A program made the position numbers and the translations under genes. The notes beneath the pieces are model-generated. The model had not been told where the DNA came from, made no database searches, and saw only the letters and a program-made list of their open reading frames with translations. Of a stretch of DNA of 32,000 bases, positions 8,534 through 16,143 are shown piece after piece; the stretch's first letter is position 1; every line of letters begins with the position of its first letter. The stretch is from positions 1,080,001 to 1,112,000 of the forward strand of contig NZ_CP011391.1 in assembly GCF_001564455.1 (NCBI RefSeq). Reading direction: 5' to 3'. The DNA comes from Faecalibaculum rodentium. GTDB lineage: Bacteria > Bacillota_I > Bacilli_A > Erysipelotrichales > Erysipelotrichaceae.

Positions 8534-8593
8534 AAAAAAGGCATCAGTGCCTGTTTCTGCAATCCATGCAGAAACGGGGTTGATGCCTTTTCC
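8534..8593. terminator. bidirectional rho-independent terminator between convergent genes
   Basis: The outer stem pairs AAAAGGCATCA (8536-8546) with TGATGCCTTTT (8581-8591). An inner stem pairs TTTCTGCA with TGCAGAAA. A-run on one side and T-run on the other. Confidence 0.7.
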
Positions 8594-8596
8594 TGT

Positions 8597-9718
8597 TTAC
8601 ATGCCGGCCGGTTCCTGTTCTGTATCGTTATCCTCTGATTCAGGCAGGGCCAGCGCCTCTGCCTCCATCCAGCCAAGAACGCTGTTGTGTTTGACCAGGA
8701 CCTGGTCCTGACAGCGAAGGACAACAGAAACCCGTTCACCTGCCTGCGCCGGCATCCGGTAATTGGTGTATTCGCTGACCGAACCGGACTGCACAAATGC
8801 ATCCGGGACCCAGAAGGATCGCCGCAGCCAGTCAGAATGCACCAGCGACTGTTCTCCCGCATGATCCAGGACCGAGATGTCCCGGTGATTCCAGCTCATG
8901 GCGAAGGGAATCTGCACCCCGGGATCTGTGTCCTTCAACACGACTGCCTGTTCCAGATCATCAGCCGACACGGTCGTGACGTTACGGCCCTGAAAGATGA
9001 CTGCATTGAGCTGACCGGATCTCTTCACCACATTCCCGCCATCGATTGACCAGATGTTCCGGGCCGGATCGAAAACGGGAGAAAAGTCGATCACTCTGTT
9101 CCGGTATTCGGAAACCGGCATGTGACCAACCACGACGGGTTTTGAGAACCGCTTGTCGGTGTGAAGGAAAAACGGTGTGGTCATGACCTCCCGGAAGTCC
9201 GATCCGAAGTGCTCTTCATCCATGATGGCCGCATGGGCATAAATCCGGTCAGGCGATACAAGAACATGCGGAAGATCCGCCAGAAACTGCAGCTCCGGCA
9301 GGAAGGCCTGACGGATCCTGTGACAGAATTCATCCATCTCCATTCCGGCAGGATCAATGCCCAGTGCTTCTGCCATTTCCATGATCAGAGATTGCCGTGA
9401 TGTGATGACGGATCTCAGAAACTGCAGCCGGTAGGAAAACAGCACGTTTTTGGCGGTGAAATCACAGTTTCCCATCAGACACCACACATTTCCGGTCCGC
9501 ACCTGTTCCATGACGAAGCGCAAAAGGGCCAGATTTTCCGGCCCTTTTTCCACGAGATCACCTGCCAGGATCAGCCGGTCCACCCCGTGGCGATATCGGC
9601 ATTTCTTCAGCAGCTGCTGATATACCGCGAGATTGCCATGAATATCGGATATCACGATCTCCTTGGCTTCCGGATCTGTCAGCTCCGGCAAGGCATGAAC
9701 CACAACTGACCGGTTCAT
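8597..9718 (-). CDS. calcineurin-fold metallophosphoesterase with a GNCD motif variant and a ~130 aa C-terminal extension
   Basis: 373 aa. Motifs VISDIHGN, LAGDLVEKG, MGNCDF and VVGHMP. The start ATG overlaps the upstream stop as ATGA (9715-9718). Confidence 0.85.
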   Translation of the reverse strand: MNRSVVVHALPELTDPEAKEIVISDIHGNLAVYQQLLKKCRYRHGVDRLILAGDLVEKGPENLALLRFVMEQVRTGNVWCLMGNCDFTAKNVLFSYRLQFLRSVITSRQSLIMEMAEALGIDPAGMEMDEFCHRIRQAFLPELQFLADLPHVLVSPDRIYAHAAIMDEEHFGSDFREVMTTPFFLHTDKRFSKPVVVGHMPVSEYRNRVIDFSPVFDPARNIWSIDGGNVVKRSGQLNAVIFQGRNVTTVSADDLEQAVVLKDTDPGVQIPFAMSWNHRDISVLDHAGEQSLVHSDWLRRSFWVPDAFVQSGSVSEYTNYRMPAQAGERVSVVLRCQDQVLVKHNSVLGWMEAEALALPESEDNDTEQEPAGM

Positions 9719-10473
9719 CGTTCCATCAGGAAGCGCAGGAAATCCGCGGCTTCCTCCTGCCAGGAAGCTTCCGTGTGTTCTCCCTGGGGCTTGACATTGA
9801 ACCGCACGCTCATGCCCTTGTCCATCAGCAGGTTGGCCAGATCCGTGCAGGCCGCGGTTTCTTCAATGAACGCATGCATTCCAGTCCCTTCATGAGCCCC
9901 CCAGGAGACGTACATCCGTGCCGGCAGATGCAGCCGGCAGGATGAAACGTCCGCCATCAGTGTACCCAGAACCGGCAGCACATAGGGAGAGATCACAAGT
10001 GACCGGGAATAGACATCGGAATGCCGGCAGGCAGCGTACAGTGCCATGAGGCCGCCGCAGCTGCTGCCGCCGATCCACGTCCAGCGCCGTCCGGGTCTGG
10101 TGGGAAAGTGGGCATCAATATAGGGTTTCAGGTCGTTGATGAAGAAATCCATGGTCGCTTCTCCTTTTCCTGAAAAATACCCGAACTGCGCATCATAGAA
10201 GGGAAACGGCCCGTATTCGTCCAGACGGGCATTGCCTTCGTGGGAACATTCCTGTCCAACCACGATCAGATCGGCACCGGCTGCCTGGATTTCCTCCTGC
10301 AGCCGCCAGGAGCGGCCGAAGGTGGCGTCTTCATCAAAAAACAGGTTGTGTCCGTCAAACATGTACAGCACGGGGTAGTCCCGGCCGGATGTCAGGTAGT
10401 CATCCGGCAGATACATGTGGATCATCCGGCTGCACTGCAGCTTTTCCATGAAGACTTCAAACTTGAGGATCAT
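9715..10473 (-). CDS. alpha/beta-hydrolase, 'putative esterase' (PF00756-like) family
   Basis: 252 aa. YPVLYMFDGHNLF, the nucleophile elbow IGGSSCGGLMAL (G-x-S-x-G), and a C-terminal His region. The start overlaps the ATP-grasp stop as ATGA (10470-10473). An alternative start is at 10449. Confidence 0.8.
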   Translation of the reverse strand: MILKFEVFMEKLQCSRMIHMYLPDDYLTSGRDYPVLYMFDGHNLFFDEDATFGRSWRLQEEIQAAGADLIVVGQECSHEGNARLDEYGPFPFYDAQFGYFSGKGEATMDFFINDLKPYIDAHFPTRPGRRWTWIGGSSCGGLMALYAACRHSDVYSRSLVISPYVLPVLGTLMADVSSCRLHLPARMYVSWGAHEGTGMHAFIEETAACTDLANLLMDKGMSVRFNVKPQGEHTEASWQEEAADFLRFLMER

Positions 10474-11657
10474 TGCCGTTCAAATGCCTTCAGGAAGAAC
10501 TCTGCCCTCCGCTCCATGGAAGTGAATCGTGCCTTGATGGTCACATCTCCCATCGCTGCTGCAAAGGCAGGCGGCAGGTATTCCGTGTTCAGGAGCTCCG
10601 GCCGGAACATGTCCTCGATTTCATGCACCGAGTACCGGTAGGGCACGCCGTTGCGCCGTCCTGCGAATCCTGCGGAGAATTTCAGCCTGGAAGACACAGA
10701 TGTCTCGTGCCCGGTGATGACCTGTGCCCAGAGGTCGTAGATGTCCATGTCGTTGGAGTAGTTGAGCAGATCCGGTGCAAATCCTCCGGGTGGACGGAAA
10801 TTCACCTCCAGCCCCATGAGCATGCCCTTTTTCCCGAGCCCCGGCTTGTCTTCCCGCAGACGGAAGTATTCACCGTGGAAGAACCGGCTCCGGATCCCGA
10901 AGGAATCCGCGACCCGCTGCGCGATCTGGCGGTATTCATCGCTCACGTCGAAGGTGTAGTACGTACCGATGGAGTCATGCTGCTGTACAGAATCCATGCA
11001 GTTGCCGACATATTCCATGCTGCCCAGAAAGCGGATCTGGCCGTCCTGGTCGGTGATGCCATCCAGCGTGATCACGTCCGCGTCGATGTATTCCTCCAGG
11101 ATCATGTGCAGGTCCCTTGTCTGCTCGAAGCAGGATACCAGCTGGGCATCGTCTGAGATTTTGTAGGTGAAGGATGCGCCCACACCATGGTCAGGCTTGA
11201 GCACGACAGGGAAGCCGACTTCCTGTACAAAGGCCCGGGCCTCTTCCAGCGTCTTTGGCAGGCAGTAGCGGGAGACAGGAACGCCTGCCCGTTCATAGTA
11301 TTGTTTCATGGCGGCCTTTGACTGGAATTCCGTGATCTGTTCAAGGCTGAACCCGGTTGTCACATGGAAGTCATCCCGCAGCCGGGCATCCAGCGTGAGC
11401 CAGGCTTCGTTGTTGGACTCGATCCAGTCGATTTTGCCATACTTCCAGGTAAAATAGCCCGCTGCCCTGAGCACTTCCTGGTAGTCATGGAAGCTTTTCA
11501 CCACAAAGCATTCGTCGATGTTGGCCCTGAGCTCCGGCTTCAGGGAATCATAGGGCTGATCCACCACCGCCAGCACTCTGGCCCCCTGCCGCTTGAGTCC
11601 CCGGCAGAACATCCAGAAACTTTCCGGATAATTGGGACTGATAAACAAAAAATTCAT
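10470..11657 (-). CDS. ATP-grasp domain ligase of unassigned specificity
   Basis: 395 aa. A pre-ATP-grasp N-terminus (MNFLFISPNYPE...ARVLAV), FPVVLKPDHGVGASFTYKI (ATP-binding Lys region), EEYI, and LEVNFRPPGG (the E-x-N metal/ATP motif). Confidence 0.8.
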   Translation of the reverse strand: MNFLFISPNYPESFWMFCRGLKRQGARVLAVVDQPYDSLKPELRANIDECFVVKSFHDYQEVLRAAGYFTWKYGKIDWIESNNEAWLTLDARLRDDFHVTTGFSLEQITEFQSKAAMKQYYERAGVPVSRYCLPKTLEEARAFVQEVGFPVVLKPDHGVGASFTYKISDDAQLVSCFEQTRDLHMILEEYIDADVITLDGITDQDGQIRFLGSMEYVGNCMDSVQQHDSIGTYYTFDVSDEYRQIAQRVADSFGIRSRFFHGEYFRLREDKPGLGKKGMLMGLEVNFRPPGGFAPDLLNYSNDMDIYDLWAQVITGHETSVSSRLKFSAGFAGRRNGVPYRYSVHEIEDMFRPELLNTEYLPPAFAAAMGDVTIKARFTSMERRAEFFLKAFERQ

Positions 11658-11677
11658 ATATTCTCTTTCTAAACTTC

Positions 11678-11706
11678 ATTTTACGATTCATGCCTGCACG
11701 TGCCAG
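11678..11706 (-). promoter_or_regulatory. promoter candidate for the ATP-grasp/esterase/phosphoesterase operon
   Basis: On the minus strand: CTGGCA (rc of 11701-11706), a 17 nt spacer, then TAAAAT (rc of 11678-11683). It is about 20 nt upstream of the ATG at 11657. Confidence 0.4.
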
Positions 11707-11720
11707 GCCGGAAACCGGAC

Positions 11721-12233
11721 TCAGCGCCCGATTTCATGGGTCTGCAGCACGGCAAGGTAAAGCGCGATCAGCGTCTTTGCGTCGCAGATCTCGTTTCGCC
11801 CTGCCATGGCCAGTGCATCTTTCAGGCTCATCCAGACCAGCTCGATGTCTTCATCCGGATCCGGCGGCAGGTGAACGGCAGCCGGTTTCGGATCATGCGC
11901 CTGATAGATATAGAGTGTTTCGTCGCAGAATCCCGGCGTGGACCAGAACTTCTGCAGAAGGGTCATGGAACTGCATTCCAGGCCTGTTTCTTCATTCAGT
12001 TCCCGCATGCCGCAGGAAAGAGGATCTTCTCCGTATTCCAGTTTCCCGGCAGGGATCTCCAGGGTCACGGCATTCACGGCCGGACGGAACTGCTTCACGA
12101 ACAGCATTTTTCCCTCACGGACCACCAGAACTCCCACCCCGCCGGGATGGCGGATGATTTCCCACGCATGACCGTCGATGGTTTCACGGCCCAGCGTGAA
12201 GATTTTTCCTTCAAACAGTGTTTCTTTTTCCAT
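11721..12233 (-). CDS. nudF: NUDIX hydrolase, ADP-ribose pyrophosphatase type
   Basis: Track ORF 11721..12254 starts at a TTG; I trimmed it to the ATG at 12233 (MEKETLFEGKIF...). The Nudix box is EIPAGKLEYGEDPLSCGMRELNEETG. From memory it is colinear with B. subtilis NudF. Confidence 0.85.
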   Translation of the reverse strand: MEKETLFEGKIFTLGRETIDGHAWEIIRHPGGVGVLVVREGKMLFVKQFRPAVNAVTLEIPAGKLEYGEDPLSCGMRELNEETGLECSSMTLLQKFWSTPGFCDETLYIYQAHDPKPAAVHLPPDPDEDIELVWMSLKDALAMAGRNEICDAKTLIALYLAVLQTHEIGR

Positions 12234-12255
12234 TTCCTTTTTCCCTTTGCCCAAG

Positions 12256-12264
12256 ATTTTACCA
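12256..12264 (-). promoter_or_regulatory. extended -10 promoter element candidate for nudF
   Basis: The minus strand reads TGGTAAAAT (TGnTAAAAT), about 25 nt upstream of the nudF ATG and just downstream of the amidase terminator. Confidence 0.4.
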
Positions 12265-12279
12265 TACCGGAAAAGATAA

Positions 12280-12301
12280 ACAAAAAAGTCCCTGCGGACT
12301 T
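12280..12301 (-). terminator. rho-independent terminator after the amidase gene
   Basis: The minus strand reads AAGTCC-GCAG-GGACTT followed by TTTTGTTT. The hairpin overlaps the amidase stop codon. Confidence 0.6.
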
Positions 12302-13122: not shown

Positions 13123-13911
13123 ATGGAATTTTTGGTTGCACTGAATGAATTTGAAGGACCGCTGGACCTGATGCTGCATCTGGTCCGGCAGCACAAGCTG
13201 GATCTTCACAATCTGAACATGGCTGAACTGGCCGACCAGTATATCTGTTATCTGCAGTCCATGGCGGATCTTCACCTGGAGATCGCCAGCGAGTACCTGG
13301 AGGAACTGGCGCTGCTGGTCGAATACAAAAGCCGGATGCTGCTGCCCAGGCAGAAGGATGACCAGGAGGATGACTACGAGGAAGACCGGCGGCAGGATCT
13401 GGTCCGCAGGCTGCTGGAGTACCAGGCATACAAGGAAGCTGCGCAGATGCTCTCTGCCCGATACGAGGAGCGTACCCTGCTGCTTTCCCGGGCTCCGGAT
13501 TCTCGGATCAGGGAATGGAGCCGGCCGGTGGAGGAAACCTGGACCGGCACGGGGGATGAACTGGCAAAAGCCATGGAACGTGTCCTGCGACGGTATGCTG
13601 TCCTGGTCCCGCATGAAACCAGGGTCCAGACGCGGGAACTGTCCACCGGCATGCGGCGCCAGCAGATCCTTCACAGACTGCCTCCGGGAGCCCGGACGAG
13701 TCTCAGGGAGCTGTGCAGCGACTGCACAGATGTGCATATGGTCGTGGTGACATTTCTGGCCCTTCTGGATCTTCTGCACGAAGGCCTCGTGCAGGCGGTG
13801 CAGAATGAAGAGGACATCCGGATTTACAGGCCGGAGGGCGAAGCCGGCACAGAATCGGACAGGACCGCATCCGGCCAGCCCGGTCCGGCCGGCACAAAGG
13901 AGAACCAATGA
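13123..13911 (+). CDS. scpA: segregation and condensation protein A
   Basis: Track ORF 13006..13911, trimmed to the ATG at 13123 (MEFLVALNEFEGPLDLMLHLVRQHKLDLHNLNMAELADQY, the canonical ScpA N-terminus). SD AAAGGTGA upstream. Confidence 0.9.
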   Translation: MEFLVALNEFEGPLDLMLHLVRQHKLDLHNLNMAELADQYICYLQSMADLHLEIASEYLEELALLVEYKSRMLLPRQKDDQEDDYEEDRRQDLVRRLLEYQAYKEAAQMLSARYEERTLLLSRAPDSRIREWSRPVEETWTGTGDELAKAMERVLRRYAVLVPHETRVQTRELSTGMRRQQILHRLPPGARTSLRELCSDCTDVHMVVVTFLALLDLLHEGLVQAVQNEEDIRIYRPEGEAGTESDRTASGQPGPAGTKENQ

Positions 13912-14629: not shown

Positions 14630-15379
14630 ATGGAACGACTTCAGAAAGTGATTGCCCAGGCCGGGATCTGCTCCCGGCGGAAGGCGGAAGCACTCATAGC
14701 CAGGGGCAGGGTGCGGGTAAATGGAGAAGTCATCACGGAACCCGGGACCAAGGTGTCGGGCAGCGATACGATCGAGGTCAATGGACAGAGACTTGACAAG
14801 GAAGAAAAAGTCTATTACCTGATGAACAAACCGAAGGGTACGATCTGCAGCGTCAGCGACGACAAGGACCGGAAGACCGTGCTGGACTATCTGCCGAAAG
14901 ACAGGCGGATTTACCCGGTCGGACGCCTGGATTACGATACCAGCGGCATCCTCCTGCTGACCAATGACGGAGAATTCACCAACCGGATGATCCATCCACG
15001 CTATCACATTCCCAAGACCTACACCATCAACCTGCAGGGTATGCTGTCGCCTGAAGACGTACAGACACTGAAAAGCGGCCTGAAGACAAAGACGGAGACC
15101 TATCAGCCTGCACGTGTCCGGATCCTGCAGAAAGACTATACCCGGGACCGCATGATCCTGGAGCTCACGATCAGCGAGGGAAAGAATCACCAGGTGAAGA
15201 ACATGATGGAAGCCCTGGGCTGCGAAGTCCGCAGGCTGAACCGCAAGAGCTTCGGCCCGCTGACGGCGGAAGGACTCAAACCCGGCGAGTACAGGCGGCT
15301 CAACCCCCATGAGGTCAAGGAACTCCTGCGGCTGGCGTCATCTGCAGAACAGACCGACAGCGGAACCCGCCGCGCATGA
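14630..15379 (+). CDS. rluB: rRNA pseudouridine synthase, RluB/RsuA family, with an S4 domain
   Basis: 249 aa. S4 domain MERLQKVIAQAGICSRRKAEALIARGRVRVNG, and catalytic motif YPVGRLDYDTSGILLLTNDG. Confidence 0.9.
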   Translation: MERLQKVIAQAGICSRRKAEALIARGRVRVNGEVITEPGTKVSGSDTIEVNGQRLDKEEKVYYLMNKPKGTICSVSDDKDRKTVLDYLPKDRRIYPVGRLDYDTSGILLLTNDGEFTNRMIHPRYHIPKTYTINLQGMLSPEDVQTLKSGLKTKTETYQPARVRILQKDYTRDRMILELTISEGKNHQVKNMMEALGCEVRRLNRKSFGPLTAEGLKPGEYRRLNPHEVKELLRLASSAEQTDSGTRRA

Positions 15380-16143
15380 AGCAGGTGTTTGCATCAGGCC
15401 CCTGTGCTCTGGAATCCCGGATCATGCTGGACGAAAAGCAGGCCCATCATCTGTTTGATGTGCTTCGGACAGGCCCCAGGGAAACGGTACGCGTGGTCTG
15501 TGATGGGGAAGTGTGGCTGGGACATGTGGAGGAAAAACCGTTTGTCTGGCTGTTCGGCAAAGAGGAAACCCAAAAACAGGGACCAGAAATCACACTGTGC
15601 ACGGCACTGATCAAATCGGACAAATTCGAATGGATGCTGCAGAAAGCCGCAGAACTTGGCGTCACCCGCATTGTTCCCTTTGTGTCCCGGTATTCCGTGA
15701 TCCAGCTGGATGACAAACGGGCACTCCGCAAAATGGAGCGCTGGAACCAGATCCTGGTCAATGCCTGCAGACAGTGCAACCGGCATGACCTGGTGGAACT
15801 GGCGCCGGTTTCCCGTCTCGAAGACCTGGCAGCCTACAAGTCACAGCTGAATCTTGTGGCCTATGAAAAGGAACAGAGCCGCCACCTGGCCCACTATCTG
15901 CAGCAGGATCCTGCATCCGTCACATGCTGCATCGGTCCGGAAGGCGGTTTTTCCCAGCAGGAAGCTGGCTGGCTCATGGAAGCCGGGTTTGCCCCCTGCA
16001 CCCTGGGAAACCGGATCCTCCGGGCGGAGACCGCGGCATTGTATGTACTGGCGTGCTGTGAATACCAGACGCATGTCAGCGAAAAACCGGAGACCTGCCT
16101 GTCTGACAGTGAATCTCCGGCAGAGAAACAGGAGGGATGCTGA
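15376..16143 (+). CDS. rsmE: 16S rRNA (uracil1498-N3)-methyltransferase
   Basis: 255 aa. SDKFEWMLQKAAELGVTRIVP and GPEGGFSQQE...LGNRILRAETAAL are RsmE motifs. ATGA overlap with rluB. The conserved rsmE-mtaB order matches the B. subtilis yqeU-yqeV arrangement. Confidence 0.88.
   Translation: MKQVFASGPCALESRIMLDEKQAHHLFDVLRTGPRETVRVVCDGEVWLGHVEEKPFVWLFGKEETQKQGPEITLCTALIKSDKFEWMLQKAAELGVTRIVPFVSRYSVIQLDDKRALRKMERWNQILVNACRQCNRHDLVELAPVSRLEDLAAYKSQLNLVAYEKEQSRHLAHYLQQDPASVTCCIGPEGGFSQQEAGWLMEAGFAPCTLGNRILRAETAALYVLACCEYQTHVSEKPETCLSDSESPAEKQEGC

Follow-up and report, generated by a model that had tools for sequence, protein, structure and literature searches.

The 32,000-nucleotide stretch of the Faecalibaculum rodentium genome analyzed here (contig NZ_CP011391.1, positions 1,080,001 to 1,112,000; hereafter the window, with positions counted from its first letter) carries three consecutive minus-strand genes. 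They encode an ATP-grasp ligase (11657..10470, 395 amino acids), a PF00756 serine hydrolase of the siderophore/feruloyl-esterase type, designated EST (10473..9715, 252 amino acids), and a metallophosphoesterase (9718..8597, 373 amino acids) whose ApaH/lambda-phosphatase-like catalytic domain is followed by a C-terminal β domain. A first-pass annotation, made from the letters alone, had described the three as a translationally welded operon with no assignable pathway. The three open reading frames (ORFs) and both ATGA stop/start overlaps, one between ligase and esterase (10470..10473) and one between esterase and phosphoesterase (9715..9718, both read on the coding strand), were confirmed. So were the motifs quoted for the ligase (VVLKPDHGVGAS, residues 151–162; LEVNFRPPGG, residues 283–292) and for the esterase (YPVLYMFDGHN, residues 33–43; GGSSCGG, residues 135–141). 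All three genes are real, each having many full-length homologues with E values down to 1e-250 or better; the ligase shares 99% identity with a Faecalibaculum rodentium protein, and the phosphoesterase matches a database cluster at 100% identity. Downstream, the proposed bidirectional intrinsic terminator (8534..8593, both strands) also proved genuine. The region 8525–8605 has a folding energy of −36.1 kcal/mol (z = −6.15), and none of 200 shuffled sequences folded equally well. It forms a nested hairpin whose outer stem, 8534–8593, lies between an A-run and a T-run and can therefore serve both convergent units, that of the phosphoesterase and that of the threonine-aldolase-like gene; a T-run terminator match lies at 8552–8539.

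The assignment of the ligase to the ATP-grasp superfamily is correct (Pfam PF02222, 31.7 bits against a cut-off of 27), and the protein matches generic ATP-grasp models only, in Pfam and in NCBIfam. It had been called unplaceable among the named families, and this view stands: it falls far under the curated equivalog cut-offs for PurK, PurT, CarB, RimK, Ddl and cyanophycin synthetase, and the full set of NCBIfam models compared (these together with PurD, PylC and LysX) gave 18–35 bits against cut-offs of 143–1027. In an alignment of 16 homologues (44%–71% identity), residues K154, E188, E284, N286, and R288 are invariant; in ATP-grasp enzymes generally, a lysine of the central domain, a hinge glutamate and the E-x-N-x-R motif bind ATP and Mg. 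An AlphaFold model (mean predicted local distance difference test score, pLDDT, 89.6) has the three-domain ATP-grasp fold. Searched against the PDB with Foldseek, it gave 530 matches at E ≤ 1e-3, and all 50 among the matches listed were ATP-grasp enzymes. The top six were L-amino-acid ligases (RizA at 4.3e-26, BL00235, and YwfE/BacD; range 4e-26 to 8e-19), followed by PurK, PurT, and biotin carboxylase at ∼1e-18 or weaker. The profile built from the 16 homologues, compared with PDB sequences, likewise placed RizA first (1e-17) and carbamoyl-phosphate synthetase next (1e-13). On the strength of profile and model, the protein is most likely an ATP-grasp enzyme of the L-amino-acid-ligase type, which may form an α-dipeptide from two unprotected L-amino acids. 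The family is large, with 446 representatives at E ≤ 1e-30 in a library clustered at 50% and matches to more than 535 stretches of species-level genomes, and it is found chiefly in gut anaerobes, Faecalibaculum, Holdemanella, Dubosiella, and Fusobacterium among them.

The esterase was correctly assigned to PF00756 (E = 1.9e-23; 84 bits against a Pfam cut-off of 22). The nucleophile motif G136-S137-S138-x-G140-G141, E195, and H233 are invariant across phyla (G136-S137-S138-x-G140 and H233 in 12 sequences from several phyla), and EST is predicted to be an active Ser-His-acid hydrolase. The best PDB matches of the family profile are the bacillibactin esterase BES (2qm0, 6.5e-15) and then ferulic acid esterases (∼1e-13); S-formylglutathione hydrolases match weakly. 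EST stays under the curated cut-offs for S-formylglutathione hydrolase (15.6 against 281.7 bits), enterochelin esterase (17.3 against 222), and the GTNG_0744 esterase (31.6 against 450). It shares its fold and Ser-His catalytic residues with BesA, Fes, IroE, and the CE1 feruloyl esterases but differs from this group in having no siderophore synthesis or uptake genes nearby and no signal peptide. Two further EST motifs, F-D-G-H-N and E75-C76-x-H78...R83 (residues 40–43 and 75–83), are also invariant across phyla and might form a metal or substrate site.

The third protein is a calcineurin-like phosphoesterase, as first proposed (Pfam PF00149, 50.1 against 21.5 bits). Across 30 homologues the motifs SDIHG, GDLVEKG, GNCD, H162, GH199, and IDGGN do not vary, nor do the metal ligands D25/H27, D54, N84, H162, and H199. 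The model (pLDDT 93.8) consists of a catalytic domain (residues ∼1–235) and a C-terminal β domain (∼236–352). Foldseek matches to the ApaH-like protein 2qjc, the Pnkp phosphatase domain and lambda phosphatase covered the catalytic domain only, and the C-terminal 136 residues had no Pfam match even at E ≤ 10. Curated cut-offs were not reached for ApaH (51.2 of 176 bits), PrpE (26.4 of 340), YfcE (23.1 of 56.25), or PrpA-B (26.6 of 326). The protein thus has all the metal-binding motifs of ApaH and ApaH-like enzymes, lambda phosphatase, and the Pnkp domain, but differs from them in having GNCD in place of GNHE/GNHD, a helical insert, and a conserved C-terminal β domain of ∼115 residues.

A scan of species-level genomes with the ligase returned 80 loci. 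Wherever the ligase is at least 58% identical to that of the window, the locus carries ligase, esterase, and phosphoesterase in this order, as far as the contig allows. The triad recurs in ∼18 species genomes from at least eight Erysipelotrichaceae genera (among the triad-bearing genera are Dubosiella, Faecalicoccus, Absicoccus, Catenisphaera, Ileibacterium, Holdemanella, Solobacterium, and Allobaculum) and on ∼13 metagenome contigs. In nearly all triad loci the genes overlap or lie no more than ∼12 nucleotides (nt) apart: the ligase/esterase junction measures −4 to +12 nt in most of them, and the esterase/phosphoesterase junction −22 to +12 nt across them. The first-pass annotation had held that a lack of synteny in related genomes would refute it; because both the triad and its tight junctions recur, that refutation fails.

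Beyond this clade, it is the pairing of ligase and PF00756 hydrolase that persists. A PF00756 gene lies within 3 kb of the ligase at 66 of the 80 loci and is adjacent and on the same strand at 57. Such loci, whose flanks are unrelated, occur in Erysipelotrichales, Lachnospiraceae, Oscillospiraceae, Fusobacterium, and Desulfovibrionaceae. Ligases 38%–46% identical to that of the window (from Fusobacterium, Mailhella, Lachnospiraceae, Oscillospiraceae, and other Erysipelotrichales) are followed by a second type of PF00756 hydrolase, designated C1 (∼251 amino acids, with GCSMG and HDW motifs), again among unrelated flanks. A neighbor-joining tree divides the ligases accordingly into clade A, found with EST and including the window ligase, and clade B, found with C1. 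The Ser and His residues are kept in both hydrolases. That EST and C1 are close paralogues was considered and rejected: they have no BLASTP similarity and represent two distant PF00756 subfamilies. The window itself contains no C1 gene and no second ligase copy. At distant loci the arrangements ligase-C1-ligase, ligase-C1-EST, and EST-C1-ligase are found. What flanks the distant loci varies (ABC and MATE transporters, permeases, chorismate mutase, a tautomerase-like ORF, and pst genes), and none of it recurs beyond a single lineage.

Partners of other hydrolase families also occur. M20D amidohydrolases adjoin the ligase at loci L027, L038, and L140. Two metagenome assemblies encode a 642-amino-acid in-frame fusion of a Peptidase_S51 domain to a ligase of this family (L086, 1146–3074; L087, 1008–2936); the S51 domain, of the PepE/cyanophycinase family, has a GCSAGS motif, and no stop codon interrupts the junction, ...ACA TTT ATG AAT.... 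Tandem ligase paralogues around C1 were observed at nine loci (L027, 3134–8525; L140, 1909–7354; L032; L036; L050; L054; L073; L076; and L079). The Holdemania locus L027 bears a five-gene string, ligase-C1-EST-ligase-M20D amidohydrolase, which is seen also at L140.

The phosphoesterase behaves differently. In the genome scan no ligase locus outside the triad clade had it, and neither did the clade A outgroups L027 and L043. A sister lineage, seen at L021 and L084, keeps it 3–5 kb away from the esterase, behind genes on the opposite strand and still adjoining the threonine-aldolase-like gene, and homologues at 34%–37% identity (Anaerocolumna and a Clostridiaceae genome) have unrelated contexts. 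It appears to be a lineage-specific, separable companion of the ligase/esterase pair. Equal standing for the three genes is supported for the ligase and its PF00756 partner, which are paired across phyla, and is not supported for the phosphoesterase, which was found with them in one Erysipelotrichaceae lineage only. In Merdibacter, a NUDIX-ligase-HAD-esterase-phosphoesterase-(aldolase) block is kept while the outer flanks have changed. The HAD phosphatase in Merdibacter-like loci is a separate gene between ligase and esterase, joined by 4-nt overlaps (L106, 3345–4004; L170, 8188–8862); elsewhere, a HAD phosphatase is fused to the C terminus of the metallophosphoesterase (P0183; L088, 6001–7809). 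HAD phosphatases have thus been recruited twice, at different positions, which speaks for the first reading and keeps a phosphorylated intermediate plausible, and phosphate removal is a possible part of the ligase/esterase chemistry. Adjacency of the threonine-aldolase-like gene to the phosphoesterase gene was seen in the triad clade, at L084, and in Merdibacter (L170), also with differing outer flanks.

The ATGA junctions themselves say little about a shared pathway, because the same overlaps join unrelated housekeeping genes in the window. ScpA/ScpB (13908–13911) and RluB/RsmE (15376–15379) have ATGA overlaps, and the RsmE and MiaB-like genes overlap by 7 nt (ATGCTGA, 16137–16143). Compact spacing is a habit of this genome and not the mark of a common pathway; to read the overlaps as translational welding of one pathway was to overstate them.

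Nor do the three genes appear to form a self-contained unit. The promoter that had been assigned to them (11706–11678, minus strand; CTGGCA-17-TAAAAT) matches 9 of 12 consensus positions, and sites of this quality are no more frequent than chance (two in a 5-kb region, against 2.7 ± 1.6 in shuffled sequences). It was rejected as a sign of operon autonomy, and is at best a weak and possibly internal promoter. Upstream lies a gene for a NUDIX hydrolase of the ADP-sugar/NudE-AdpP type (11721..12254, minus strand; Pfam PF00293, 1.8e-18; NCBIfam matches to NudE/YffH-AdpP, each under its cut-off). In ∼11 relatives the NUDIX gene overlaps the ligase gene or stops no more than 4 nt before it, and in the window the 63-nt gap between the two contains no terminator-like hairpin (z = −0.42). 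The coupling in relatives, the absence of a hairpin from the gap, and the chance-level promoter together make autonomy of the triad doubtful. We infer that the transcription unit is probably NUDIX-ligase-esterase-phosphoesterase, possibly with an internal promoter, and that the NUDIX gene is probably its first. A weak terminator-like hairpin with a T-run at the stop codon of the upstream amidase gene (12286..12301, minus strand; z = −2.1) would part that gene from this unit. After this hairpin, at ∼12256–12264 on the minus strand and 2 nt before a TTG at 12254, our reading of the letters picks out TGGTAAAAT as a possible extended −10 element of a promoter. If it is used, the NUDIX start would be the ATG at 12233 (MEKETLF...).

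We therefore move the focus away from three welded genes and toward the widespread pairing of ligase and esterase, to which phosphohydrolases are optional additions. Our preferred reading, to which we give about an even chance, is that the locus is a conserved Erysipelotrichaceae operon with the ligase/esterase pair as its functional core and the phosphohydrolases as lineage-specific companions. The ligase would activate a free carboxylate, that of an amino acid or similar small acid, as an acyl phosphate, and would then join the acyl group to an amine, or perhaps a hydroxyl, of another small molecule, giving a dipeptide-like or depsipeptide-like product. The esterase would either cleave this product in a make-and-break arrangement, as in the LdmS/HmrA system discussed below, or free the acid substrate of the ligase from an ester; these substrates, and either direction of the esterase step, we infer from the homologies above. 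The pair would be co-expressed with lineage-specific additions (the metallophosphoesterase, the NUDIX hydrolase and, in certain relatives, a HAD phosphatase), which are possibly tied to its chemistry. That the ligase almost always sits beside a hydrolase suggests that a small molecule is made and broken down under control. Naming this product would add a piece to the metabolism of gut microbes, and the locus offers a well-defined lead.

The earlier statement that no characterized three-enzyme pathway has this composition agrees with our searches: none was found in Pfam, NCBIfam, PADLOC, the PDB or the literature searched. An anti-phage defense system was considered and rejected, the three proteins having no PADLOC match. 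In the literature searched, no paper on a gene pair of ATP-grasp ligase and esterase was found, and the sole analogue was the hmrA/ldmS operon of Staphylococcus aureus, which encodes the M20D peptidase HmrA and the L-aspartate-L-methionine ligase LdmS (PMC9486568). By analogy, this nearest characterized system may serve as precedent for the pairing of ligase and hydrolase. Both loci combine, in a small operon, an L-amino-acid-ligase-type ATP-grasp enzyme that would act in primary metabolism with a hydrolase that would undo the bond, and M20D genes stand beside some ligases of the present family, as noted above. They differ in that the window hydrolase is a PF00756 α/β serine hydrolase and not a metallopeptidase, in that the window locus has extra phosphohydrolase genes, and in that the window locus gave no S-box, CodY or CymR-type clue to regulation. 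LdmS is not among the PDB matches of the ligase family profile at E ≤ 1e-3, so the two are not close relatives.

RizA, BL00235, and YwfE/BacD, the dipeptide synthetases of Bacillus, have the same three-domain architecture and catalytic residues and are the best profile and fold matches, but they belong to antibiotic clusters (rhizocticin, bacilysin) or are orphans, whereas the present family is chromosomal, occurs in a wide range of gut anaerobes, and has esterases as partners. Glutathionylspermidine synthetase/amidase and cyanophycin synthetase/cyanophycinase are further cases of an ATP-dependent ligase genetically coupled to an opposing hydrolase, and the S51 domain of the fusion ligase described above is of the cyanophycinase/PepE kind. 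Their hydrolases, however, have CHAP and S51 folds and not that of PF00756, and the window ligase lacks the polymer-forming Mur-ligase domain of cyanophycin synthetase (29.5 bits with that model, against a cut-off of 850).

Several observations weigh against the preferred reading. In the close clade the whole 13-kb neighborhood is syntenic (ScpA/B, RluB, amidase, NUDIX, threonine-aldolase-like gene, and CoA-transferase), so local conservation is in part inheritance and synteny alone proves little. Identity of the ligase to characterized ligases is only 12%–18%. An Rfam scan covering the window and nine further loci placed neither a riboswitch nor a T-box near the ligase. The ligase is nearly always beside a PF00756 gene, whereas the esterase is often alone: of the 36 metagenome loci with enough flank, 16 have an EST homologue (∼40% identity) but lack a ligase inside 4 kb, and these represent at least six contexts; EST is thus no dedicated partner of the ligase. 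The nearest relatives of EST cleave esters and not peptide bonds, a poor fit to the S51 and M20D partners. Finally, the persistence of the Merdibacter block and the two HAD recruitments indicate that the phosphohydrolases may be more than passengers. Ligase-less EST genes were observed on human-gut metagenome contigs, for example at L111, L122, L128, L132, L144, L146, L156, L158, L160, and L163.

The last of these difficulties leads to the alternative that survives best, and that lies close to the first-pass annotation: that NUDIX hydrolase, ligase, esterase, phosphoesterase, and at times HAD phosphatase form one integrated pathway acting on a single phosphorylated or nucleotide-linked ester or amide metabolite. 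Such a pathway might, for example, synthesize or salvage a compound whose processing calls for de-esterification and for removal of a phosphodiester and then of a phosphate. Tight junctions in many genera, including NUDIX to ligase and esterase to phosphoesterase, fit such a pathway, as do the Merdibacter block, kept among different outer flanks, and the two independent acquisitions of a HAD phosphatase, one by fusion and one by insertion with 4-nt overlaps. The phosphoesterase has the GNCD motif of YfcE-type phosphodiesterases and a likeness to ApaH and Pnkp enzymes, which fits a small-molecule or nucleotide substrate. Yet the phosphoesterase is never found with the ligase/PF00756 modules of other families and phyla, is displaced behind opposite-strand genes in L021 and L084, is missing from the outgroups L027 and L043, and has homologues in unrelated contexts. 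Unrelated neighbors also share the 4-nt overlaps, and NUDIX, HAD, and metallophosphoesterase proteins are typical general house-cleaning enzymes. On balance we consider an integrated pathway a tentative alternative, and rather unlikely. A more far-reaching form, in which the ligase/PF00756 modules of gut anaerobes, here with NUDIX and ApaH-like phosphoesterase (and sometimes HAD) enzymes, make and turn over an undescribed small molecule, perhaps a dipeptide or depsipeptide that bears or stems from a phosphorylated or nucleotide-linked precursor, is a speculation that we think somewhat less likely still; if true, it would be a new primary or signaling pathway, and Erysipelotrichaceae, Lachnospiraceae, Fusobacterium, and their relatives would have it widely.

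The relationships of EST raise the question of salvage, in which the esterase would split an ester of dietary, host or microbial origin, for instance of the feruloyl or siderophore type, and the ligase would couple the carboxylic acid so released to an amine or amino acid. The bacillibactin and ferulic acid esterases are the nearest solved relatives of EST, and the frequent occurrence of EST apart from the ligase, while the ligase rarely lacks a PF00756 partner, is the asymmetry to be expected of an esterase acting upstream of the ligase. Against this, the S51 and M20D peptidase partners point to amide cleavage and no uptake system is consistently linked; moreover, no enzyme of the L-amino-acid-ligase type is known to take aromatic acids. 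Salvage therefore seems improbable. An operon of convenience, in which unrelated cytoplasmic enzymes would have no more in common than a promoter and compact spacing, would account for the 13-kb synteny of the close clade, for the overlaps between the unrelated RluB, RsmE, and MiaB-like neighbors, and for the separate occurrence elsewhere of the esterase and phosphoesterase families. It is quite improbable given the adjacency of ligase and PF00756 genes among unrelated flanks in several phyla, with 57 of 80 on the same strand, the covariation of ligase clade with hydrolase subtype, and the existence of hydrolase-ligase fusions. Least probable of all is a write/erase modification of a protein or ribosomal peptide, like that of RimK or the graspetides, with the ligase adding residues or cross-links and the hydrolases removing them: the superfamily has protein-modifying members and a ligase with hydrolases fits a cycle in principle, but the closest relatives are ligases of free amino acids and not RimK (the rimK_fam model gave 27.7 bits, its cut-off being 143.4), the recurring neighbor clusters (ORFs of at least 80 amino acids) included no conserved small precursor-like ORF, and no carrier-protein gene is linked.

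Some features around the ligase loci concern other genes. In the window, the threonine-aldolase-like gene that shares the terminator (7379–8437, plus strand) encodes a pyridoxal phosphate enzyme and is convergent to the phosphoesterase gene. Long ORFs lie antisense to well-supported genes across the window (GC content 55.7%), for example at 5655–7301 and 7346–8518 on the minus strand and 10473–11156 on the plus strand; they are most likely non-coding shadows. At three Erysipelotrichaceae loci, a PstB-like ATPase and its neighbors lie a few kb from ligase-C1 modules (L036, 4–2551; L052, 3224–4635; L069, 832–2280), and the proximity of these phosphate-transport-like genes may be lineage synteny only. 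Two Coprococcus loci have, after the ligase, an ORF of 118 amino acids that begins Met-Pro and is tautomerase-like, with no Pfam match (L024 and L031, both 7207–7563). A type II chorismate mutase gene is divergent from the ligase at seven Erysipelotrichaceae/Solobacterium loci, including L035 (3680–4060).

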